Shown piece by piece: positions 207-59,163 of a stretch of DNA of 59,163 nt. This DNA is from Myxococcales bacterium (GTDB taxonomy: Bacteria; Myxococcota; Myxococcia; Myxococcales; 40CM-4-68-19): contig JAIVGS010000190.1 in the NCBI GenBank assembly GCA_020201435.1, forward strand, positions 1 to 59,163, in the 5' to 3' direction. The translations under genes were made by a program, and so were the position numbers. The notes under the pieces are model-generated. The model did not search any database. It was given only the letters and a program-made list of their open reading frames with translations, and was not told the DNA's origin. Positions within the stretch are counted from its first letter, which is position 1; each line of letters starts with the position of its first letter.

Positions 207-2659
207 TTCAACCTCTCCGCCAGCCTGGCGAGCGCTTTTTGCAGATCGGGCTTGAGCACGAGCACCTTCGCCAGCGGATCCTCGCCGAGCTTCTTCATCC
301 GCGCGGGCGCGTTCTTCAGCGTGTACTTCGCGGGATCGAGCCTGCCGCTCACCTCGCTCCATTTGAGCGGCATCGACACCGTCGCTCCCGGCACCGGCCG
401 CGCGCTGAACGGTCCCGCGATCGTCTTGCCGTACCCGTTCTGGTAGCAGTCGAGATAGACGCGCCCCTTGCGCGACGGGATGTGCCGGGCGGTGCTGGAG
501 ATGTCGCCGTGATCCTTCTCGATCGTGCTGGCGATCAGCTCGGCGAGCGTGATCGATTGCGCGTGCGTGAGCTGGCCGCCGAGCGGGATCAGCACGTGCA
601 GACCCTTCTGACCACTGGTCTTGCAGAAGTTCGGCAACCCGATCTCCTCGCACAGCTCGTGCGCGGCGCGGGCGAGCGTCACGACATCCTCGAACGGCGC
701 CGTCTTCGGATCGAGATCGACGATGCACCAATCCGGGTTCTGCAGCGCGCTCAACCGCGCCGACCAGAGGTGCAACGGGATGCTCGCCATGTTGACGACG
801 TAGAGCAGCGACTCGACGTCGTCGCAGACGAAGTAATCGTTCTCCTCGCCGGGAACGCGCGCGGTGCGAATCCAGGCCGGCACGAAATGAGGCGCGTCCT
901 TCTGGTAGAAGCTCTTCCCCGCGATGCCGTCGGGATACCGGGTGAGCATCACCGGGCGATCGCGCAGGTACGGCAAGAGCCACGGCGCAATCGCGCGGTA
1001 ATACTCGATCAGATCGCCCTTCGTGTACTTCTGCTCCGGCCAGAAGATCTTGTCGAGGTTGCTGAACGGCACCTCGCGTTTCACCGACGGCACCGCAGGC
1101 GGCGCCTCCGGCGAAATGCATTCGAGCGGCGCCTTGTCGGTGCGAAATCGCAGGAAGGTCGGCTGCCGCAGAAGACCATCTTCGGTGATTTCCTTATATC
1201 GAACTTCGACGACGAGCTTCGGCTCCACCCAGGTGTTGCCCGAGCCGCCGGGTAGCGGCCCCACGCAGGGCGGTTTCGGCAGCCGCAGCTTCTCGAGATC
1301 TTCTCGCGCCTGCTTGACCTCCTTTTCGCTGAAGCCGCCACCGACCTTTCCGACGTAGAGGAGCTCGCCGTCGCGCGCGACCGCGACATGGACCGAACCG
1401 AATCCGGACCGCGACCCCTCGCCCTTGCTGAAGCCGACCACCGCGAAATCGCCGACGCGGTCGCTGCGGATCTTCTGCCAGTCGCGGAACCGCCCGCCGC
1501 GGTATGGCGACTGCGCGCGCTTCGCGACGATGCCTTCGAGGCCGAGCTCCCTGACGCTGGCGAAGAGCGCGCGCCCGTGGCCCTCGACGTGATCGACCGC
1601 GCGGAGCGGACCGATCGAGGGCACCAGCTTCGCCAGCAGACGCTTCCGGTCGGCGAGCGGCAGCGGCCGCAGGTCGAAGTCCTCGAACGCGAGCAGATCG
1701 AAGAGAAACAGTGTGGCCGGCAACTCCGCCGCTGCGCGGTCGACGTCCCGCGGCGCGGTGAGCAGCGCACGCTTCTGCAGCCGCTGGAAAACGGGCCGCC
1801 CGGTCTCGTCGAGCACGGCGATCTCGCCGTCGGCGACGAAGCGTTCGGCCGGCAGCGACAAGAGAGCGCGCGCGAGGTCGGGAAAGACCGAGGTGGCGTC
1901 CGATCCCCGCCGATAGAAGATGCGCGGCCGCGAATCTTCCCGCGCGACGATCGCGCGAAACCCGTCGTACTTGAGCTCGAACATCCAGTCAGGATCGTCG
2001 AATGCCTCGCGCGCCGGCTCGGCGAGCATCGGCTCCACCTCTTCGCCGCGCACCTCGCGTCGGGGCGCTCCGAGCCGCTCGCATTCGGCCCGAATCTCCG
2101 CCGCGCGCTTTCCGTGCTCGCGCAGCTCCTCGACGCCGAGTCCCGAGAGGATCGAACGATCGTCGTACGGGAACGGCTCGCCGCGGCGAACGTGCCCGTC
2201 TCCCGTCTCCTTGATCAGCAGCCATTCCTTCTGCGACTTCATCCGCACCAGCGTCCACATCCCCTTCAGCTTGAATCCTTTGAGCTCGAACAAGATCTTC
2301 CCGGCCCTCTCGCCCTCGCGCGGATCGCCGACCGGCTGCCATTGCCCGCGGTCCCAGACGATCATCGGCCCCGCGCCGTACTCGCCCGCCGGGATCACGC
2401 CCTCGAAGTCGGCGTACTCCACCGGATGGTCCTCGGTGTGCATCGCCAGCCGCTTCTCGGCCGGATCCGGCGACGGCCCGCGCGGCACGGCCCACGATTT
2501 CAGGACGCCGTCCCACTCGAGGCGCAGGTCGTAGTGCATGCGCGTCGCGGAGTGCTTCTGCACGACGAAAATGCCTGGACGGGGCCCGCCGCCGCCCATC
2601 GGCTCTGGCGTGCGATCGGGCGACCGCTTGCGGCGGTACTCGTCCAGGAAGTTGGCCAT
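203..2659 (-). CDS. ligD: ATP-dependent DNA ligase LigD (phosphoesterase-ligase-polymerase, NHEJ)
   Basis: 883-aa ORF 203..2854. Conserved sequence begins near M66 (LDEYRRKRSPDRTPEP, the LigD 3'-phosphoesterase N-terminus), so the start is set at ATG 2659. PE domain: FVVQKHSATRMHYDLRLE. Ligase adenylation motif: ELKYDGFR. C-terminal primase-polymerase domain: FSNLDKIFWPE..YPDGIAGKSFYQKD. Confidence 0.9.
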   Translation of the reverse strand: MANFLDEYRRKRSPDRTPEPMGGGGPRPGIFVVQKHSATRMHYDLRLEWDGVLKSWAVPRGPSPDPAEKRLAMHTEDHPVEYADFEGVIPAGEYGAGPMIVWDRGQWQPVGDPREGERAGKILFELKGFKLKGMWTLVRMKSQKEWLLIKETGDGHVRRGEPFPYDDRSILSGLGVEELREHGKRAAEIRAECERLGAPRREVRGEEVEPMLAEPAREAFDDPDWMFELKYDGFRAIVAREDSRPRIFYRRGSDATSVFPDLARALLSLPAERFVADGEIAVLDETGRPVFQRLQKRALLTAPRDVDRAAAELPATLFLFDLLAFEDFDLRPLPLADRKRLLAKLVPSIGPLRAVDHVEGHGRALFASVRELGLEGIVAKRAQSPYRGGRFRDWQKIRSDRVGDFAVVGFSKGEGSRSGFGSVHVAVARDGELLYVGKVGGGFSEKEVKQAREDLEKLRLPKPPCVGPLPGGSGNTWVEPKLVVEVRYKEITEDGLLRQPTFLRFRTDKAPLECISPEAPPAVPSVKREVPFSNLDKIFWPEQKYTKGDLIEYYRAIAPWLLPYLRDRPVMLTRYPDGIAGKSFYQKDAPHFVPAWIRTARVPGEENDYFVCDDVESLLYVVNMASIPLHLWSARLSALQNPDWCIVDLDPKTAPFEDVVTLARAAHELCEEIGLPNFCKTSGQKGLHVLIPLGGQLTHAQSITLAELIASTIEKDHGDISSTARHIPSRKGRVYLDCYQNGYGKTIAGPFSARPVPGATVSMPLKWSEVSGRLDPAKYTLKNAPARMKKLGEDPLAKVLVLKPDLQKALARLAERLK

Positions 2660-2687
2660 TTCCCGGGGCAGGTTATCATCCGTGCCC
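2660..2687. promoter_or_regulatory. 28-bp divergent ligD/ku intergenic spacer
   Basis: Only 28 nt separate the best-supported ligD start (2659, minus) and ku start (2688, plus). Promoter elements for each gene must therefore overlap the partner gene. Confidence 0.35.
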
Positions 2688-3563
2688 ATGAGCGCTCGGT
2701 CCATCGCGTCCGGGACCATCTCCTTTGGATTGGTCTCGATCCCCGTGAAGCTGTTTTCGGCGAGCCAGTCGTCCGCCGCCATCTCGTTCAACCTGCTCCA
2801 CTCAAAGTGCAAAGGCCGGCTCAAGCAGCAATACATCTGCCCCCGCGACGACAACGCCCTGGTTTCGCGCGAGGAAATGGTGAAGGGTTACGAGTTCGCC
2901 AAGGATCGCTACGTGACCTTCACCCCGGAAGAGCTGAAGGCCCTCGAGGAGAAATCGACGCAGCAGATCGAGATCGCCGAGTTCGTGCCGAGCGAAAAGA
3001 TCGATCCGGTCTATTTCGACAAGCCGTACTACCTCGGACCCGAGAAAGGCGCCGACCGCGCGTACCGATTGCTCGCCGAGGCGATGCGGCGCAGCGGGCG
3101 CACCGCGCTCGCGCGCTATGCGGCGCGAGGCAAGCAGTATCTCGTCCAGATCCGTCCGCTCCCCGAAGGCGGGCTGGTGATGCAGACGCTGCTCTACGCC
3201 GACGAAGTCCGTCCCTTCTCGGAGGTCGAGTTCGAGAAGGGCGACGTCAAGGACCAGGAACTGGCGCTCGCGCAGCAGATCATCGACCAGATCTCGACCG
3301 ACGAGTTCAAGCCCGAGAAGTTCGAAGACGACGTGCGCAAACGGATCGAAGCGCAGATCCAGCGCAAGGTCGAAGGCCAGGAGATCCAGATCGAGCCGGA
3401 GAAGCCGCAGACGCAGATCATCGATCTGATGGAGGCCTTGAAAGCGTCGTTGGCCGCGAAGGGCCTCGCGCCGCAGAAGGCGCCGGAAGCGGAAGAAGAA
3501 CGGAAGCCGGCCAAGCGGGCGCCTCGTCAGGAACGATCGTCGAAATCGAAGGCCAGCAAGTAG
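2688..3563 (+). CDS. ku: Ku DNA end-binding protein (NHEJ)
   Basis: ORF 2538..3563. Start chosen at ATG 2688, because MSARSIASGTISFGLVSIPVKL is the canonical bacterial Ku N-terminus. Motifs: YVTFTPEEL and PVYFDKPYYLGPEKG. Lys/Glu-rich tail. Divergent from ligD. Confidence 0.93.
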   Translation: MSARSIASGTISFGLVSIPVKLFSASQSSAAISFNLLHSKCKGRLKQQYICPRDDNALVSREEMVKGYEFAKDRYVTFTPEELKALEEKSTQQIEIAEFVPSEKIDPVYFDKPYYLGPEKGADRAYRLLAEAMRRSGRTALARYAARGKQYLVQIRPLPEGGLVMQTLLYADEVRPFSEVEFEKGDVKDQELALAQQIIDQISTDEFKPEKFEDDVRKRIEAQIQRKVEGQEIQIEPEKPQTQIIDLMEALKASLAAKGLAPQKAPEAEEERKPAKRAPRQERSSKSKASK

Positions 3564-3607: not shown

Positions 3608-5764
3608 ATGCGCTTTGTTCGAATGTGCGCGTGCGGGGCGCTGATCGCCGCCGCATGCGGCGGACGCCGCGACGCTCCGCTCGTCTCGATGACGATCTCG
3701 CCCGCCACCGCCACCGTCGACCAGGGCGGCACGCAAGCGTTCGTCGCCCAGGTGGTCGGCGCCGACCTGCCGGTCGCCTGGTCGCTCGCTGAGGGGCCGA
3801 CGGCGGGCAGCATCGCCGGCGACGGCACCTACAGCGCGCCTCCGGCGCCGGGCTCGTATCACGTCGTCGGGCGGGCGGGTCCGGCGACTGCGACGGCAGT
3901 GGTGACGATTCCGCCGATCACGGTTTCGATCTCACCGGCCTCGGCCGACGTCCTCGCCGGCGGGTCGGTGCAACTGCAATCGAATGTTTCAGGCGCTGTG
4001 GATCGAACCGTGCGCTGGTCGGCGAGCGCCGGGTCCGTCGATGCGACGGGACTTTACACGGCGCCGCTGGGGCCGGGGATTGCTTACGTCGTTGCCACCA
4101 GCCGCGCCGATCGATCGCGCTCGTTCTCCGCGGCGATCAATGTCGTCACGCAGCGGACCCTCTCGATCGATCCGCCGATCGCCGCGCTCGAGCCCGGCGC
4201 TTCGCTGCGATTCAATCCGACCGTCGCGGCGTCGTGGAGCGCGGATGGCGGGACGATCGACGCCGACGGCCTCTACGTCGCTCCGCAGACGCCCGGCTGG
4301 TATCACGTCACCGCCGTCGCCCTCGGCGACGGCTCGCAGCGCGCGACGGCGCAGGTCTACGTCGAACCGAGGGTCACGGTTGCGATTGCGCCCGCGTCAC
4401 CGCGCCTCGAAACCGGCGCGCAACAGCAGTTCGTCGCCGCCGCAGCCGGGAGCGATCCGGGCGTGACCTGGACGGTCCAGGAACCGGTCGGCGGGACCAT
4501 CGACCCGACCGGCCTCTACACCGCGCCGCGGGCGGCAGGTGCTTATCACGTCGTCGCCACCAGCGTCGCCGACCCATCGCGCAGCGCGAGCACCGAAATC
4601 ACGGTCGCGGTTCCGCCGGTTTCGGTGATCCTCTCGCCGGCGGCGATCACCGTGAAGCCGGGCGCGAGTCTGACGTTCAAAGGCGTCGCAGCGGGAGCGC
4701 AGGACACGCGGCTGCACTGGTCGAGCAACTGCTGCAAGGCGATCGCGCAGGACGGGACGTTCACGGCGCCGCTCTGGCCGGGCGCGTATCACCTGATCGC
4801 TCGCAGCGTCGCCGATCCGTCACAGTTCGCCTCCGCGACGATCACGGTCCAGTCGGACGCGCCGATCGATCCCTCCGCGGTGACGCTCGCCGCCGGGGAT
4901 CGGATCGCGTTCACCTCGTCCGATCCGTCTGCGATCTGGTCGCTGCAGGAAGGCGCGCGGGGCGGGACGATCTCGAACGGCGTCTACCAGGCGCCGAGCG
5001 ACCACGGCGGAAGCTTTCACGTCGTCGCGAGCGGGCGGTTCGGGACCACGATCGCGCAGGTCGACGTGCTGCCCGCCGATCTCGTCGATCACGGCGGGAC
5101 GGTCGTCCCGACCACGCGCACCTTCGCGATCTTCTGGGGCGATCCGAACGGTTGGCCCGCCGACGTCCGGCCGGCGCAGGAGGCGATTCTGCGCGGTCTC
5201 GCGGGAAGCGCGTATCTGCGCCTCGGCGACGAATACCTGCGCGGCGCCACCGGTGGCACCTCGTTCGGCGGCACCTTCACCATCCCTTCGAACCCGCCCG
5301 GTTCACCGGACAAGGCGGACAACCAGACCGTCGGGGCCGTCGCGTGCGAGGCATTGAAGGCCGGCGGCGTCACCGTCGCGCCCGGCGACGTCGCCATCGT
5401 CTACGGCTCGGCCCAGCTTTCTCCGGCGCCTTCGTGGTGCGCATGGCACTCGTACTTCACCTGCGGGGGGACCACGCTGCTGATCGCGTTCATCCCCAAC
5501 GTCGCGGGCCCCTACGGGTGCGTCAAGCTCGGCGCGAACGCAGGCTGCAACTTGCTGTCCGAAGACGCCAACGCGACCGGCTCGCTCGCAGCCCACGAGC
5601 TGCTCGAAGCGATGACCGATCCGCTGCTGAGCGCGTGGACCGACGCGGCCGGCGGCGAGATCGGCGACAAGTGCGAAGAGCAGACGCGCTGCATCGCGCT
5701 GTCGACCGGATCGTTCCAGCTGCAGACCGAATACTCGAACGCGATCCACGCCTGCGTGCCTTGA
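3608..5764 (+). CDS. probable lipoprotein with six Ig-like repeats and a Cys-containing C-terminal domain
   Basis: The N-terminus MRFVRMCACGALIAAACGG is a lipoprotein-type signal. Six repeats each end in a G(T/L)Y(T/S/V)AP..PG.YHVV motif. The C-terminal ~230 aa carry HGGTVVP..FAIFWGD, CAWHSYFTCGG and AAHELLEAMTDP. GGAGGGGG precedes the ATG. Confidence 0.8.
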   Translation: MRFVRMCACGALIAAACGGRRDAPLVSMTISPATATVDQGGTQAFVAQVVGADLPVAWSLAEGPTAGSIAGDGTYSAPPAPGSYHVVGRAGPATATAVVTIPPITVSISPASADVLAGGSVQLQSNVSGAVDRTVRWSASAGSVDATGLYTAPLGPGIAYVVATSRADRSRSFSAAINVVTQRTLSIDPPIAALEPGASLRFNPTVAASWSADGGTIDADGLYVAPQTPGWYHVTAVALGDGSQRATAQVYVEPRVTVAIAPASPRLETGAQQQFVAAAAGSDPGVTWTVQEPVGGTIDPTGLYTAPRAAGAYHVVATSVADPSRSASTEITVAVPPVSVILSPAAITVKPGASLTFKGVAAGAQDTRLHWSSNCCKAIAQDGTFTAPLWPGAYHLIARSVADPSQFASATITVQSDAPIDPSAVTLAAGDRIAFTSSDPSAIWSLQEGARGGTISNGVYQAPSDHGGSFHVVASGRFGTTIAQVDVLPADLVDHGGTVVPTTRTFAIFWGDPNGWPADVRPAQEAILRGLAGSAYLRLGDEYLRGATGGTSFGGTFTIPSNPPGSPDKADNQTVGAVACEALKAGGVTVAPGDVAIVYGSAQLSPAPSWCAWHSYFTCGGTTLLIAFIPNVAGPYGCVKLGANAGCNLLSEDANATGSLAAHELLEAMTDPLLSAWTDAAGGEIGDKCEEQTRCIALSTGSFQLQTEYSNAIHACVP
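3680..5080 (+). repeat. six tandem ~75-80-codon Ig-like coding repeats
   Basis: Recurrent peptides at roughly 75-80 aa spacing: DGTYSAPPAPGSYHVVGRA, TGLYTAPLGPGIAYVVATS, DGLYVAPQTPGWYHVTAVA, TGLYTAPRAAGAYHVVATS, DGTFTAPLWPGAYHLIARS, NGVYQAPSDHGGSFHVVAS. Confidence 0.75.
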
Positions 5765-16072: not shown

Positions 16073-17257
16073 GTGGGAGCGCCCATGCCGATGTCGTTGC
16101 TCGAGCAGCTCAAGGCGGTCACCGTGGTCGTCGCCGACACCGGCGACATCCATTCGATCCGCAAGTTCACTCCCCGCGACGCGACGACCAACCCGTCGCT
16201 GATCACCGCCGCGGCGCAGATGCCCGAGTACCAGGACGTGGTCCGCGCGGCGCTCGACTGGGCGCGGCGCGAGGTGCCCAAAGGTGCGTCTCGCGAGGAC
16301 ATCTGCCGCCTCGCGGTCGATCGGCTGGCGGTCGAGTTCGGCTTGCGCATTCTGCAGATCGTTCCCGGGCGCGTGTCGACCGAGGTGGACGCGCGCCTTT
16401 CGCACGATACCCAGAAGATGATCGAGAAGGCGCGTTTTTTGATCAAGCTCTACGAAGCGGCGGGCGCGAAGCGGGAGCGGATCCTGATCAAGATCGCCTC
16501 GACCTGGGAAGGAATCCGCGCCGCCGGGCAGCTCGAGAAGGAAGGGATTCACTGCAACTTGACGCTGCTCTTCGGCATGCACCAGGCGGTGGCCTGCGCG
16601 GAGGCGGGGGTCACCCTCATTTCGCCTTTCGTCGGTCGCATCCTCGACTGGTACCTGAAAGACACCGGGCGCACCGAGTACGACCCGGAAGAGGATCCGG
16701 GCGTGGTTTCGGTAACCAAAATTTACAACTATTACAAAAAGCATGGTTATCGAACCGAGGTGATGGGCGCCTCGTTCCGCAACGTGGGCGAGATCCTCGA
16801 ACTGGCGGGATGCGATCTGCTGACGATCGCGCCGAAGCTGCTGTCCGAGCTGGCGAGCTACGGCGGCGAGCTCGAGCGCAAGCTCGATCCCCGCACCGCC
16901 GAGACGCTGCCGATCGAGAAGATCCACGTCGACGAAAAGACGTTCGGCGAGATGCACGAGAAGGACCGGATGGCGCGCGAGAAGCTCGCGGAAGGAATCG
17001 ACGGCTTCACCAAGGCGCAGGTTTCGCTCGAAGCGATGCTCCTCGAAAAGTTCATGGGCGACACCTCGAACGCGGCGCGCGATCTGTTCCGCGTCTTCGA
17101 CCTCGACGGCGACGGTTTCATCACCCGCGAGGAGTGGGCCGGAACCGACGCGGTCTTCGACGCCCTCGACGTCAACGGCGACGGCCGCATCACCCCGGAA
17201 GAAATGGGTGCCGGCCTCGGCGCCGCCTTCCGCCTCCCGGAAGCATCGCACAGCTAA
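16073..17257 (+). CDS. tal: transaldolase fused to a C-terminal EF-hand pair
   Basis: TalB-like body: [63 protein letters not shown]. It is followed by a 67-aa tail with two canonical 12-residue EF loops, [12 protein letters not shown] and [12 protein letters not shown]. The start could be the ATG at 16073, 16085 or 16091. Confidence 0.9.
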
Positions 17258-17357
17258 CTGCAACAGCGCACCGCGAAGGCGCGAAGGTTTCGGATTCGTT
17301 GCGCGGCGGCGACGATTGCAAGGCCCGACCCCTTCGCGTCTTCGCGCCTTCGCGGTG
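17256..17357. repeat. palindromic GCGAAGG-unit repeat element, copy 1 (intergenic)
   Basis: AACTGCAACAGCGCACCGCGAAGGCGCGAAGG ... CCTTCGCGTCTTCGCGCCTTCGCGGTG. The arms at 17269..17287 and 17331..17357 are inverted complements. The element is near-identical in its ends to copy 2 at 44162..44273 and starts inside the tal TAA stop. Confidence 0.8.
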
Positions 17358-44158: not shown

Positions 44159-44841
44159 ACGAACTGCAACTGCACACCGCGAAGGCGCGAAGGCGCGAAG
44201 TTTTTTCGCGCTGTGCTCGCAGCGGCGCTTTGTCCGCCAACCCCAACCCCTTCGCGCCTTCGCGCCTTCGCGGGGGGCTTTTGCTCTTGCTTTTCAGCGC
44301 GGCGTGCGGGGACACGACCTTGTTCGACCCCATGGAGAGGCAGCCGAAGTTCAGGGCCTTCTCCGCCAACTCCCTCTACGAAGACGGCCGCGCGATGCGG
44401 CAGCCGCCCGCCGGCACGGTGCCGCGCGAAGCGATCACGATGCGACCGGAGATCACCACCGCCGCCGACCGGAAGGGCGCCGTGATCGACACGATCCCGA
44501 TCTCCGTCACTCGCGAGCTGATGGACGCCGGCCGCACCAGGTTCGAGATCCACTGCGCGCCCTGCCACGGCCTGCTCGGCGACGGCGTGAGCCCGGTCGC
44601 GACGCAGATGTCGCTCCGCCCGCCGCCGAACCTGCACAAGATCCGCAACCCGAGCCCCGGCCACGTCTTCCAGGTGATCAGCCTCGGCTTCGGCCTGATG
44701 CCCTCCTACGCGCCGCAGCTCACCGCCGAGGAACGCTGGGCGATCGTCGCGTACGTCGAGGCGCTGCGCCGCAGCCAGTCGGCGATGCTCGCCGAGGCGC
44801 CCCCGGACATCCAGAAGAAGCTGCGCGAGGAGCCGCAATGA
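44155..44841 (+). CDS. actE: alternative complex III subunit ActE (monohaem cytochrome c lipoprotein)
   Basis: In-frame part of ORF 43618..44841. ATGA overlap with actD. Lipobox LFSAAC and one haem motif CAPCH. The first ~40 codons are occupied by a palindromic repeat element (see findings). Confidence 0.78.
   Translation: MNELQLHTAKARRREVFSRCARSGALSANPNPFAPSRLRGGLLLLLFSAACGDTTLFDPMERQPKFRAFSANSLYEDGRAMRQPPAGTVPREAITMRPEITTAADRKGAVIDTIPISVTRELMDAGRTRFEIHCAPCHGLLGDGVSPVATQMSLRPPPNLHKIRNPSPGHVFQVISLGFGLMPSYAPQLTAEERWAIVAYVEALRRSQSAMLAEAPPDIQKKLREEPQ
44162..44273. repeat. palindromic GCGAAGG-unit repeat element, copy 2 (inside actE 5' end)
   Basis: AACTGCAACTGCACACCGCGAAGGCGCGAAGGCGCGAAG ... 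CCTTCGCGCCTTCGCGCCTTCGCGG. The arms at 44175..44200 and 44249..44273 are inverted complements. Its ends match copy 1 at 17256..17357. Confidence 0.8.
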
Positions 44842-56022: not shown

Positions 56023-58488
56023 ATGGCCCAGACGCAGCCCCCGCGCCGGGTTCGTGAGCCGCAGCTGCTCCGTTCCGTGCGCGAAGCGGCCCAGAAGGCG
56101 AGCAGCCTCGAGGATGCGCTTCGCGCCGCGCTGCAGCGCATTTGCGCCGCGACCGGATGGCAGGCGGGCCGCGTCGAGTTCGCGCACGAAGCCGGCGAGT
56201 TCGCCTCGCGCATCGTCTGGCACCTGGCGCGGCCGGATCGGCTGGACACGCTGCGGCATCTGGCGGAACGGCGGCGCCGCAGCCACGGCGACGAGATCGC
56301 CACCAAGGTCCTGCGCGACGGCGAGCCGCAGTGGCGGCCGAACCCCGAGGAGGGCGCCGCGGCGGTGTTCGCCTTCCCCGCGGTCGCCCACCACAAGACG
56401 CTCGCCGCGGTCGAGTTCTTTTCCACCGCCGAGGAGCCGCCGGACGACGCGCTGCTGGCCGGAATCGCCAACGCCTGTGCCGAGCTCGGGCGGATCATCG
56501 AGCAGAAACCTGCCGAGGAAATGTTGCGCAAGGTTGAACGCGGATATCGGGATTTGTTCGAGAGCGTCGCCGAGGCGCTGATCGTCATCGACCCGCGCAA
56601 CGGGGTGATCCTCGACGCCAACCCGCGCGCGGCCGAGTTGTTCGGCGTGCCGCGCGAGCGATTGTTGGGGACCAGCGCGCATGCGCTCTGGTCGGACGCG
56701 GGAGTCGCGCGGGCCGCGATCGCGCGCGGGCGCCGGTTCGAGTCGCTCTTGCGGCGGCCGGGCGGCATCGAGGTGGTGCTCGAGGTGAGCGCGAGCGGCG
56801 TGCACTACCACGGGGAGCAGGCGACGCTCCTGCTCGCGCGCGAGGTGACCCAGCGCGTCCGCGTGCTCGACGCGCTGCGGGCGTCGGAAGAGCGCTACCG
56901 GGTCCTGTTCGAAAACAATCCGCAGCCGATGTGGGTCGAAGATGCGGATACCGGCGGGTTCCTCGCCGTCAACGAGGCCGCCGTGCGTCATTACGGTTGG
57001 CCGCGCGAGAAGTTCCTCGCGATGCGGTCCGCCGATCTGCGGCTCGATCCGGGCGCGGCCGCCGAGCAGCGCAATGGGTCGCCGGCGGTCGAGCGGCATC
57101 GGACCGCGTCGGGCGAGGCGCACGATCTCGAGCTGTCGGTCCACGAGGTCGTCTTCGAAGGCCGCCGCGCGCTGCTCGTCGCCGCCACCGACGTCACTGC
57201 CCGGCGCAAGGCGCAGGCGAGGCTGCTGCAGGCGGCGTTCTACGATCCGCTCACCGGCCTGCCGAATCGCGCGCTCTTCAAGGATCGCCTCGAAGTCGCG
57301 TTCGCGCGCGCGAAGGGCCGCGAAGCGGCGCGGTTCGCGGTGCTGTTCCTCGATCTCGATCGCTTCAAGCTGGTCAACGATTCGCTCGGCCATCGCGCCG
57401 GCGACGAGCTCCTCGTCCAGATCGCGCGGCGGCTCGAGAGCTGCCGGCGCGCGGGCGACACCGTGGCGCGGCTCGGCGGCGACGAGTTCACGCTGCTCGT
57501 CGAGGGCGTCTCCGGCGAGGAGGAAGCGATCTCGGTCGCCGAGCGCGTCCACCGCGCGCTGGCCCCGCCGTTCGTCCTCGAGGGGCACGAGGTCTTCGCC
57601 GGCGCATCGATCGGAATCGCGCTCGGCGGCCCGACCACCGACCGGGTCGAAAATCTCATGCGCGACGCGGACACCGCGATGTACCGCGCCAAGATCCGCG
57701 CCACCCGCCACGCGGTCTTCGACAGCTCGATGCACGAGCGCGCGATGGCCGCGCTGCGCCTGGAGAACGAGCTGCGCCGCGCGCTCGAGCGCGGCGAGCT
57801 GCGGATTCACTACCAGCCGATCGTCGAGCTCTCGACCGGGCGGACCCAGGGCGTCGAGGCGCTGGTGCGCTGGGAGCACCGCGATCGCGGCCTGGTGCCG
57901 CCGAGCGAGTTCATTCCGCTGGCGGAGGAGACGGGGCTGGTGATCCCGCTCGGACGGTGGGTGCTCGACGAAGCCTGCCGGGCGCTTTCCGTCCTGCCGG
58001 ACCCGCTTACACTCTCGGTGAACCTGTCGGGCCGGCAGTTGCTTCAGCCGGACCTGCCCGAGCAGCTCACCGCGATGCTCGCGCGCGGCGGCCTGTCGCC
58101 GCGGCGGCTCAAGCTCGAGCTGACCGAGAGCATGCTGTTCGGGAACGGAGCGGCCGCGATCGACGCCCTGAACAGGCTGCGCGCGACCGGCGTGCGGCTC
58201 TGCATCGATGATTTCGGGACGGGGTACTCGTCGCTCTCGTACCTGCACGAGCTGCCGATCGATTCCTTGAAAATCGACCGCTCGTTCATCGGGGCGATGG
58301 GCGACGACGAGCGCAAGACCAAGATCGTGCAGACGATCCTGCTGCTCGGGAAGGGGCTCGGCATCGAGGTCGTCGCGGAGGGCGTGGAGACCGAGCAGCA
58401 GGCGGCGGCGCTGCGGCGGCTCGGGTGCGAGCGGGGGCAAGGGTATTACTTCGCTCGGCCGGCCCCGCTGGAGCAGTTGACGCTTTAG
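56023..58488 (+). CDS. GAF-like/PAS/PAS/GGDEF/EAL cyclic-di-GMP signalling protein
   Basis: In-frame 821 aa of ORF 55600..58488, with ATG 56023 preceded by GAGGGAAG. Two PAS modules ([16 protein letters not shown].., [16 protein letters not shown]..). Intact RLGGDEFT. Intact EAL motifs ([26 protein letters not shown]). Confidence 0.9.
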
Positions 58489-58961
58489 CTGCCGTCCCCG
58501 TGCCCGTCCCCGTTTTCGAGCACGTCCCCGTCCCCGTTCTCGTTTTTGAGCACGTCCCCGTGGAGGTGCTCGTGCCCGCGCCCGTGACCTATTTTCGGAC
58601 TGGCGGGTTCAAAATCGTAGTGTCGAATCAGTCCTGTAAGCAGTCCGTACACTCTTCCGGCGGTGTCGCGCGCAACGCGTCCTCTCTCCGGATCGCACTC
58701 GCGAGCTGCTCCGGCGACATCGATCGCAGCAGCAGTTTCGCAGCATTCGCCGCGCGCGATCGCATACACCCGTTTACGGTCCGCGTTGCTGAAACGTCCA
58801 ACAGCTTCCGCGATGTTCAGGCAGATGCTCTTGCTCGCGCGAAGCAGTTGGTCACGCGTCCGTGGGTCTGTGACCTCCAAGTCGCGAACCTCTTGAAGCA
58901 ATTGAAGCGCGATCTGGTACGCGAGTAGCTTGTCGTGCGGCATGGGCTGATCGATTGACAT
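58485..58961 (-). CDS. four-helix-bundle protein (23S rRNA intervening-sequence protein family) with repeat-encoded His/Gly/Asp tail
   Basis: Start set at ATG 58961 ([22 protein letters not shown]). [44 protein letters not shown] matches the family core (..SI..NIAEG..R.S..D...F..IA.GS..E). The last ~35 aa ([34 protein letters not shown]) are encoded by the left inverted repeat. Confidence 0.8.
58489..58589. repeat. left terminal inverted repeat of the cassette
   Basis: The repeat begins CTGCCGTCCCCGTGCCCGTCCCCGTTTTCGAGCACGTCCCCGT. Its first 43 nt match the reverse complement of 59037..59079 at 40 positions by hand alignment. It contains an internal direct sub-repeat, (T)TTTCGAGCACGTCCCCGT / TTTTTGAGCACGTCCCCGT. 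Confidence 0.8.
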
Positions 58962-58998
58962 GACCGGGCCCAAGCTTGCACAACGGGTGCCATCATCC

Positions 58999-59079
58999 GC
59001 GGGCACTCGCACGGGCACCTGCTCGAAAAAACGGGCACGGGGACGTGCTCGAAAACCGGGACGGGAACGGGCACGGCAG
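58999..59079. repeat. right terminal inverted repeat of the cassette
   Basis: The reverse complement reads CTGCCGTGCCCGTTCCCGTCCCGGTTTTCGAGCACGTCCCCGTGCCCGTTTTTTCGAGCAGGTGCCCGTGCGAGTGCCCGC. It is colinear with the left repeat, with a few gaps. Confidence 0.8.
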
Positions 59080-59163
59080 TTACTGCTCGCCGACGCCGCC
59101 GACGACCTGCTTCGCATACCCCGGCTGAATCTTCCCGCCCTCCTCGACCCCATTGATCAGCGC
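59080..59163 (-). CDS. 3' end of an unidentified gene entering from the right edge
   Basis: The minus-strand frame is open to the window edge and ends at TAA (59082..59080). Translation: ALINGVEEGGKIQPGYAKQVVGGVGEQ. GC3-rich codons. Too short to assign. Confidence 0.3.
   Translation of the reverse strand, partial: ALINGVEEGGKIQPGYAKQVVGGVGEQ

Follow-up and report, generated by a model that had tools for sequence, protein, structure and literature searches.

The window analysed here comprises positions 1 to 59,163 of contig JAIVGS010000190.1 in the Myxococcales bacterium assembly GCA_020201435.1. Near its right edge a gene for a PAS-GGDEF-EAL protein and a gene for an M48 peptidase converge. 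The gap between their stop codons is exactly and entirely occupied by a 591-bp cassette with inverted repeats at its ends and a gene for a four-helix-bundle (4HB) protein inside. This arrangement had been proposed in a first-pass annotation of the letters, and both direct reading and an inverted-repeat search bore it out. The right-hand neighbour was identified as an M48 peptidase from L001 (GCA_046262975.1), a 99.2%-identical contig of the same organism. The cassette and its borders comprise the following features, with arms named in the sense orientation of the 4HB gene:

58489-59079, minus strand: whole cassette, 591 bp, limits set by the inverted-repeat termini and confirmed by relatives without the gene there (L144 with a 0-nt gap, L084, L085, L143 and L145)
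59000-59079, minus strand: 5' arm, built of (NNNNCG)n hexamers that form a higher-order repeat of ~26-30 nt
58977-58992, minus strand: sigma-54-type promoter motif TGGCAC-CCGTT-GTGCA (-24 GG, -12 GC), from a motif scan
58485-58961, minus strand: 4HB gene, 158 aa plus TAA at 58487-58485 (PF05635/TIGR02436)
58488-58619, minus strand: linker and Gly/Asp/His/Glu/Asn-rich tail, predicted to be disordered (translation and AlphaFold)
58489-58572, minus strand: 3' arm, reverse complement of the 5' arm, which also codes for the C-terminal tail of the protein
59025-59048, minus strand: small GCACG-TCCC-CGTGC hairpin with a T-run behind it, a weak terminator candidate from a consensus scan
58486-58488, plus strand: TAG stop of the GGDEF-EAL gene, adjoining the cassette (gene reading)
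59080-59082, minus strand: TAA stop of the M48 peptidase gene, adjoining the cassette; the gene leaves the window (gene reading)

The TAA of the 4HB gene (58487-58485) overlaps the TAG of the GGDEF-EAL gene, and the 4HB gene is the sole open reading frame (ORF) with family support in the cassette.

Together, the two ends of the cassette form an inverted repeat (58486-58538 / 59030-59082; 53 nt, 91% complementary, 491 nt apart) that is much stronger than any other in the 59-kb window. Its 43-nt terminus occurs at 58489-58531 on the plus strand and at 59037-59079 on the minus strand with 3 mismatches, where 0 sites were expected (100 shuffles); this agrees with the 40 matching positions counted in the first-pass annotation. 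Similarity was also said to continue with gaps beyond 43 nt, and the measured extent of the gapped local alignment is ~80-84 nt (58489-58572 versus 59000-59079). Each arm was likewise said to hold an internal direct sub-repeat. We found the 19-nt sequence TTTTCGAGCACGTCCCCGT four times, twice per arm, versus 0.02 expected. Both arms are strings of (NNNNCG)n hexamers with a higher-order period of 26-30 nt. When the hexamer order of one arm was shuffled, the local score averaged 31.8 and peaked at 70, and 0 of 2000 shuffles reached the observed score of 97. Because the shuffle never attained that score, the arms are collinear copies of each other, and low-complexity CCCGT repetition is ruled out as the source of their similarity.

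The cargo had been placed in the protein family of 23S rRNA intervening sequences (IVS), and both PF05635 (55.9 bits, cut-off 33.8) and TIGR02436 (57.3 bits, cut-off 24) confirmed this. Since homologues keep the N-terminus M(S/T)xDxxMPH(D/E)KL, the start codon is likely the ATG at 58961, which yields a protein of 158 aa. AlphaFold predicted helices at residues 2-21, 27-49, 53-79 and 85-110 (pLDDT >94), followed from about residue 111 by a low-confidence tail. The best PDB matches found with Foldseek were XCC0516 (2GSC) and BT_0352 (2RLD), with target-normalised TM-scores of 0.77-0.86; for 2GSC, the Foldseek E-value was 1.5e-5 (TM 0.83-0.86). A phmmer search gave an E-value of 4.5e-6. The structural match to Avd proteins of diversity-generating retroelements (DGRs) was weak (E ~0.1-0.2, 9-15% identity). 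Reading of the translation also confirmed that the last ~35 codons are the left arm translated. Tails of homologues are of the HEHE, NENE or GDGHG type, and the VLVL... extensions upstream are the reverse complement of these tails.

To follow the history of the locus, we read the junction in graded M48 peptidase orthologues found by look-up. Identities below are those of the M48 protein to that of the window:

L082, 91%: cassette, with a 4HB protein that is 84% identical
L143, 86%: unrelated, highly structured 272-nt palindrome; the contig ends soon past the junction
L084, 84%: 65-nt hairpin, gene absent
P0124, 81%: 30-nt gap (length only)
L085, 77%: unrelated hairpin of 85 nt whose stem is perfect over 23-24 bp
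L144, 75%: 0 nt, stops back to back (TAG|CTA)
L145/L146, 70%: 84 nt of heptamer arrays

In a neighbour-joining tree of M48, the window and L082 group together with L143, followed by L084, P0124 and L085, with L144 outside these. Since the junction is filled in L082 but empty or otherwise filled in other relatives, the cassette is a discrete insertion at this junction. Among the relatives read, the 4HB gene is confined here to one small lineage, and vertical inheritance since before the split from the L082 lineage best explains its presence. The junction shows seven states, five of them unrelated fillers, among close relatives, which marks it as a hot spot where palindromes and tandem repeats turn over. 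The L084 hairpin has CAGTAACTGCCGTG and CGAGCACG..CCCCGTT in common with the arms of the window, each of which is ~18 nt (three hexamers) longer than that of the hairpin. It may be either a gene-less derivative of the cassette or its ancestral state.

These comparisons also bear on the idea that the cassette is a small mobile element targeting stop codons or TA sites. In outline the idea held: the unit is inserted, empty sites exist (for example the 0-nt gap of L144) and multicopy relatives were found, as described below. The details of the targeting did not. Against the empty site TAG|CTA of L144, the flanks of the cassette are TAA and CTA, and no target-site duplication (TA or TTA) is present beyond the TA inherent in the stop codons. 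Targeting of stop codons or TA is also unnecessary, as the ancestral gap was ~0-30 nt (L144, P0124); the cassette ends at the stops because only an insertion between them spares both genes. A reverse transcriptase or transposase, for which a check past the right edge had been suggested, was absent from the called genes within ~10 kb, and no transposase was found in the cassette or among the called genes within 4 kb on its other side, although one could act in trans.

One of the alternative fillers recurs elsewhere. In L145, a (GCCTGAA)n heptamer array (4449-4483) fills the junction without a 4HB gene, and the same array recurs in L027 (2760-2799), ~200 nt ahead of a 4HB gene; L027 belongs to a different metagenome-assembled genome (MAG). 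BLAST of the cassette arms and of the fillers of the relatives against all fetched loci revealed nothing shared except this match.

The comparison of the window with L082 separates constraint on the protein from constraint on the arms. In the 4HB core, identity is 90% at the first, 95% at the second and 53% at the third codon position. Because positions 1 and 2 are conserved and position 3 only to 53%, the gene is functional and under purifying selection, with synonymous sites nearly saturated. Identity reaches 94% in the 5' arm (79/84, 11 gap columns), versus 63% in the adjoining leader. In the 3' arm, which is also coding, the three codon positions are 89, 94 and 89% identical, and this equal conservation indicates that constraint in the tail acts on the nucleotides and not on the peptide. 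Thus, the arms are functional and selectively constrained, being 89-94% conserved versus 53% at synonymous sites of the core. They also change together: the two arms of L082 match each other perfectly over CGTTTTCGTTTTCGAGCAGGT, a stretch in which an indel of 4 nt and three substitutions separate the arms of the window, and this indicates concerted evolution.

The base composition of the gene is atypical. GC content at third codon positions (GC3) is 0.63 in the 4HB core (58620-58961) versus 0.91 and 0.94 in its two neighbours, and 0.68-0.77 in other 4HB cassette genes (L001, L012, L040, L082, L083) versus ~0.9 in the other genes there. By this measure the 4HB gene looks foreign. Since the low GC3 persists in both the window and L082 despite near-saturated synonymous sites, either selection keeps it low or exchange renews it.

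A candidate promoter is located between the 5' arm and the start codon. The sigma-54 consensus is TGGCAC-N5-TTGCW, with the GG of the -24 and the GC of the -12 element 10 nt apart. The motif TGGCACCCGTTGTGCA at 58992-58977 fits this consensus and is the only TGGCAY-N6-TGCW match in the window. It is conserved at 14 of 16 positions between the window and L082, inside an otherwise poorly conserved leader. The same motif precedes the ATG by 12-15 nt (6 nt in L007) in nine cassettes: window/L001, L082, L083, L002, L003, L004, L007, L011 and L018. Across 893 kb of loci, 10 of the 14 motif matches were located at most 130 nt upstream of a 4HB gene and on the same strand. The cassette thus probably has its own conserved sigma-54-type promoter. 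Because the GC of the -12 element is only 17 nt from the ATG and there is no Shine-Dalgarno sequence, the 4HB mRNA would be leaderless or nearly so, and would lack the 5' arm. A scan for sigma-70 promoters found no sites. A scan for terminator-like hairpins returned one site versus 1.0 expected, which is chance level; this hairpin lies within the 5' arm, 32 nt past the M48 stop, and its stem is kept in L082.

When the whole cassette was folded as RNA (-311.6 kcal/mol, z = -9), the arms formed the closing stem, with a 20-bp perfect duplex (GTTTTCGAGCACGTCCCCGT) within a stem of ~80 bp. Since the promoter lies between the arms, this stem is confined to read-through RNA, sense from the M48 gene or antisense from the GGDEF-EAL gene. 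The proposal that the cassette is an RNA-level module with a long stem bracketing the ORF is therefore weakened and holds at most for read-through transcripts: the gene's own mRNA would lack the 5' arm, and the arm mismatches show no wobble bias.

To see how far this architecture extends, we scanned a genome collection for 4HB genes and obtained 80 loci, all from Myxococcota MAGs. The genes are multicopy, with at least 7-10 copies in several MAGs. Many of them (L002-L081) lie a few hundred bases from contig ends, a location that is expected because repeated elements break assemblies. The question whether other 4HB genes have similar repeats can be answered positively: flanking inverted repeats score at least 40 in 13 of 65 complete 4HB genes and at least 70 in 10 of 65, versus 0 of 131 random positions. 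Hexamer tandem arrays were present in 14 upstream and 9 downstream flanks versus a background of 3%, and periods of 3, 4, 5, 8 and 9 were not enriched in 4HB flanks. Arm types differ among cassettes (GGGAAA, GGAGAA, GTTCTA, ACGTGC, GTGCGN, CGAAAA, CGTCCC).

MAG DP_25 contains four copies of one discrete cassette, which can be aligned across 650-715 bp and have unrelated flanks. They begin 0-25 nt past the upstream stop codon, and in L040 the cassette reaches from stop to stop. Long-tailed relatives of the window's gene occupy unrelated loci, and their arms share CGTNNN-style units, which indicates that arms and ORF co-diverge and travel together. Among the 39 4HB genes with both neighbours identifiable, 20 were located in convergent, 16 in tandem and 3 in divergent gaps. 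These data are best explained by cassettes that populate the intergenic gaps of Polyangia-like Myxococcota, chiefly between convergent genes. The cassette of the window is real, beyond chance, and it is a member of a multicopy Myxococcota family.

Several further cassettes showed features of their own. A second 4HB cassette of another type is located ~9 kb past the right edge of the window (L001, 709-1420). It begins right after the upstream stop, carries (TTATCC)6 and (CGAAAA)5 upstream and (TCCTTT)3 and (TCGTTC)9 downstream, and contains a hairpin with TGGCAC-N6-TTGCA as well as another, perfect over 23 bp (908-930 / 949-971), in which the GGAGG and the ATG of the gene are sequestered. A sigma-54 activator gene (1828-3177) adjoins this cassette.

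In 15 loci (L010, L012, L013, L016, L023, L025, L029, L031, L032, L038, L040, L053, L055, L065, L068), a conserved hairpin motif of the form CGCGCCA[stem]-loop-[stem]GTCAC(T)-N5-CTGCA precedes the 4HB ATG by ~95-108 nt. Its stem clearly covaries (AACGCC/GGCGTT, GCCCC/GGGGC, GGGCC/GGCCC and others). Next comes a hairpin of ~21 bp in which the ribosome-binding site and the start codon are paired. Its 3' half reads TGGCAC-N5-CTGCA, which is sigma-54-like, in L013, L016 and L036, and TGTCAC in most copies. In 455 kb, the hairpin was found beside 4HB genes only, and it had no Rfam match. In Labilithrix-like MAGs (L074, L076, L077, L079, L080), the region ~20-110 nt ahead of the 4HB gene takes part in a long stem, in which the upstream complement CTTGGTTTGGTCGGTCAT pairs with the initial ~20 nt of the coding sequence (ATGACCGACCAAACCAAG); the stem encloses CGCGCCAGCGCC...GGCGCTGTCAC, and hexamer arrays of the (GGGTCG)/(GGGGCG) type follow downstream of the genes. 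In addition, convergent 4HB genes occur as tail-to-tail pairs 0-30 nt apart (L025 2998-3673, L054 2986-3679, L053, L056). These pairs are inverted duplications of whole cassettes; in L025, each gene has its own upstream leader hairpin.

Taken together, we lean, at slightly better than even odds, towards a self-contained palindromic 4HB cassette family that is insulated by pairing arms and driven by sigma-54. The cassette, which encodes no recombinase, would have been inserted by some means of transposition where two convergent stop codons met with practically no gap between them. Its gene would normally be silent, and its expression would depend on the firing of a sigma-54 activator. The ORF would then be read through the 3' arm, which would give the protein a disordered acidic/His tail that ends in the stop of the neighbour. 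Read-through transcripts from either neighbour would hold both arms and could form the ~80-bp duplex with its 20-bp perfect core. By analogy with IVS of rRNA, this duplex may serve as an RNase III substrate and as a barrier to read-through, and so decouple cassette and host genes, which would render the insertion harmless. In DNA, the same palindrome may allow templated correction and thus the concerted evolution of the arms.

A number of observations weigh against this interpretation. The assignment of the sigma-54-type promoter derives from sequence alone, and its position inward of the 5' arm means that the arm stem cannot form in the mRNA of the 4HB gene itself. Selection for RNA-specific pairing was not detected: mismatches between the arms of 17 cassettes comprised 28 sense G.U, 46 antisense G.U and 130 transversions, without an excess of sense G.U, a moderately strong negative given that the alignment of arrays is ambiguous. 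The sequence of the arms is itself conserved beyond pairing, which is compatible with sequence-specific protein binding. Further copies of the 43-nt terminus had been anticipated, but no second copy of the arms was found in the window, L001, ~0.45 Mb of related loci or a metagenome scan. In the latter, the arm 20-mer GTTKTCGAGCACGTSMCCGT gave 56 matches, all in unrelated coding sequence with no 4HB gene nearby, although this result is weak as the contig of L082 evidently lies outside the collection. Mobility of the window's own cassette is thus deduced only from its presence and absence in relatives and from related families.

The cassette could alternatively be a terminal-inverted-repeat transposon similar to miniature inverted-repeat transposable elements (MITEs), with the 4HB gene as passenger, arms that bind a transposase supplied in trans and subterminal hexamers as recognition units. 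Its terminal inverted repeats, the insertion polymorphism and a related multicopy family with shared arms fit this explanation; the gene-less L084 hairpin looks like a derivative, and many 4HB loci lie at MAG contig ends, as repeated elements do. However, the target-site duplication is lacking, as the TA comes from the stop codons, and no transposase was found ~10 kb past the right edge or beside ~80 related loci (ORF and Pfam context). Moreover, one transposase cannot recognise arms that are wholly different among families (GGGAAA, GTTCTA, ACGTGC, CGTCCC), and selection for transposition alone does not account for strong arm conservation in a long-inherited single copy. We therefore consider such a transposon unlikely. 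The conserved nucleotide sequence of the arms, not their complementarity alone, could instead point to arrays of protein-binding sites, either enhancers (upstream activating sequences) of a sigma-54 activator or operators of a pentameric 4HB protein, in which case the inversion would reflect looping or symmetric binding. The regular 6-nt and ~30-nt periods and the lack of a wobble bias agree with this, and the 5' arm starts a few bases above the -24 element and reaches ~90 nt upstream, overlapping the usual enhancer zone (for the general sigma-54 mechanism with enhancer sites, see PMC3162934). Avd proteins, as PF05635 relatives, bind nucleic acid in DGR complexes, although the fold match to 8UB7/8UB8 is weak. 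Yet arms differ entirely within one MAG and among related MAGs, so that one host activator could not serve all of them; the arms of L082 evolve towards perfect complementarity, for which pairing or templated correction is simpler; and the L084 hairpin is kept with neither promoter nor gene. Binding-site arrays thus strike us as improbable.

The order of events might also have been the reverse, with an ancestral host hairpin, for example a bidirectional terminator, into whose tip promoter and ORF were inserted before the arms expanded. The L084 hairpin sits at the same site, is gene-less and shares sequence with the window's arms, and L084 branches outside the window, L082 and L143 in the M48 tree; other relatives have different stop-to-stop hairpins at this junction, and the window itself holds two gene-less hairpins with stems of 8-mer arrays (see below). 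There may also be a parallel in the IVS at the tips of rRNA helices. Against this order, the arms co-diverge with the ORF and move together with it to unrelated loci (DP_25 and the tailed clade with its CGTNNN style). Turnover is required either way, since L143, which is sister to the filled lineages, carries an unrelated palindrome of 272 nt. A hairpin that came first therefore appears quite unlikely. Finally, both arms are made from similar C-rich hexamers, which would fit chance CCCGT low complexity beside an ordinary resident gene. With 0 of 2000 unit shuffles reaching the observed score, 0 occurrences of the 43-mer expected and five relatives lacking the gene at this junction, we give this explanation practically no credence.

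The closest known system to the palindromic cassette is the S23p-type IVS of 23S rRNA, as in Leptospira and Coxiella burnetii, whose complementary borders are cleaved by RNase III (PMC4990558). Both carry an ORF of the PF05635/S23p family enclosed by complementary, stem-forming termini, with short tandem repeats between stem and ORF (variable heptamers upstream of the ORF in Coxiella, PMC4990558; hexamers in the cassette), and both show a sporadic distribution, an atypical base composition and no encoded recombinase. In contrast to IVS, which are found within 23S rRNA genes and occupy the tip of helix 9, 25 or 45, the cassette lies between an M48 and a GGDEF-EAL gene. The first-pass annotation had described it as an IVS-protein-type gene in an IVS-like stem outside any rRNA, and a search of 58000-59163 with Rfam was in accordance with this, as it matched neither rRNA nor any other family. 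Across the cassette and ten related loci, Rfam gave only chance miRNA-like matches on long hairpins; arms and conserved leader hairpin belong to no known family. PADLOC found no defence-system match for the cassette. The stem of the Coxiella IVS measures 28 bp, whereas the cassette arms are hexamer arrays of ~80 nt. Unlike in an IVS, the ORF of the cassette reads through one arm and a sigma-54-type promoter motif is found between the arms. Furthermore, the ORF of the Coxiella IVS is reported to be decaying, whereas the codon pattern of the cassette gene clearly shows purifying selection. Because it is located outside 23S rRNA, the cassette is best described as IVS-like but not an IVS, that is, as a non-rRNA variant of the S23p/IVS kind.

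Other systems share less with it. XCC0516 (2GSC) and BT_0352 (2RLD), free-standing bundles of the S23 ribosomal protein family, have the fold and family of the cassette protein, but they are protein-only entries without a described cassette architecture and lack a repeat-encoded tail. Avd of DGRs (4DWL, 8UB7; PMC10053308) has the same 4HB superfamily fold with a weak match; no reverse transcriptase was found among the neighbouring genes, and no search was aimed at a pair of template and variable repeats. Repetitive extragenic palindromes (REPs) and the bacterial interspersed mosaic elements (BIMEs) built from them, REPtrons and MITEs are, like the cassette, palindromic, intergenic, located at gene ends and especially between convergent genes, multicopy and accompanied by gene-less hairpin versions. 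Terminal inverted repeats, as in such transposons, are present and a target-site duplication is absent. Unlike these elements, the cassette carries a conserved gene that encodes neither a RAYT nor a transposase, and it has long tandem-array arms that differ between cassette families. A literature search, incomplete in coverage and thus no proof of novelty, yielded no account of cassettes with S23p/4HB genes beyond rRNA, nor of their hexamer arms or a connection with sigma-54.

How ORF-carrying 23S rRNA IVS arose, how they move and what they do have been open questions for more than 30 years (PMC4990558). With an IVS-type gene and the architecture of stem and short repeats in plain intergenic DNA, the origin of IVS becomes easier to study: natural before-and-after sites and many independent copies are available for comparison, and arms, promoter, protein and tail are testable parts. 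The cassettes could reveal the role of S23p/Avd-like proteins outside retroelements and the route of such cassettes into rRNA helices, and the hot spot at the junction bears on the tolerance and recycling of intergenic palindromes in compact high-GC genomes. A bolder view, to which we assign a low probability, is that 4HB cassettes are widespread autonomous palindromic mobile elements, that the 4HB protein propagates the unit via arms or hairpins, and that gene-carrying IVS of rRNA belong to the same class. If this were true, IVS in rRNA would be cassettes that landed in helix tips and were tolerated through RNase III excision, the long search for the mobility factor of IVS would end with the 4HB protein, and DNA would move in a new way without a classical recombinase.

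The wider surroundings of the cassette comprise genes for the M48 peptidase, response regulators, CheB/CheR, GGDEF-EAL and DUF proteins. Elsewhere in the window, we observed two copies of a gene-less palindrome of ~100-120 nt (17255-17355 and 44160-44284), each directly after a stop codon. Both open with AACTGCAAC.GC.CACCGCGAAGG and have stems made of inverted 8-mer arrays, (CGCGAAGG)n ... (CCTTCGCG)n. They form a REP/MITE-like family with tandem-repeat stems, whose first bases, AACTGC, resemble the terminus of the cassette (TAACTGCCG).

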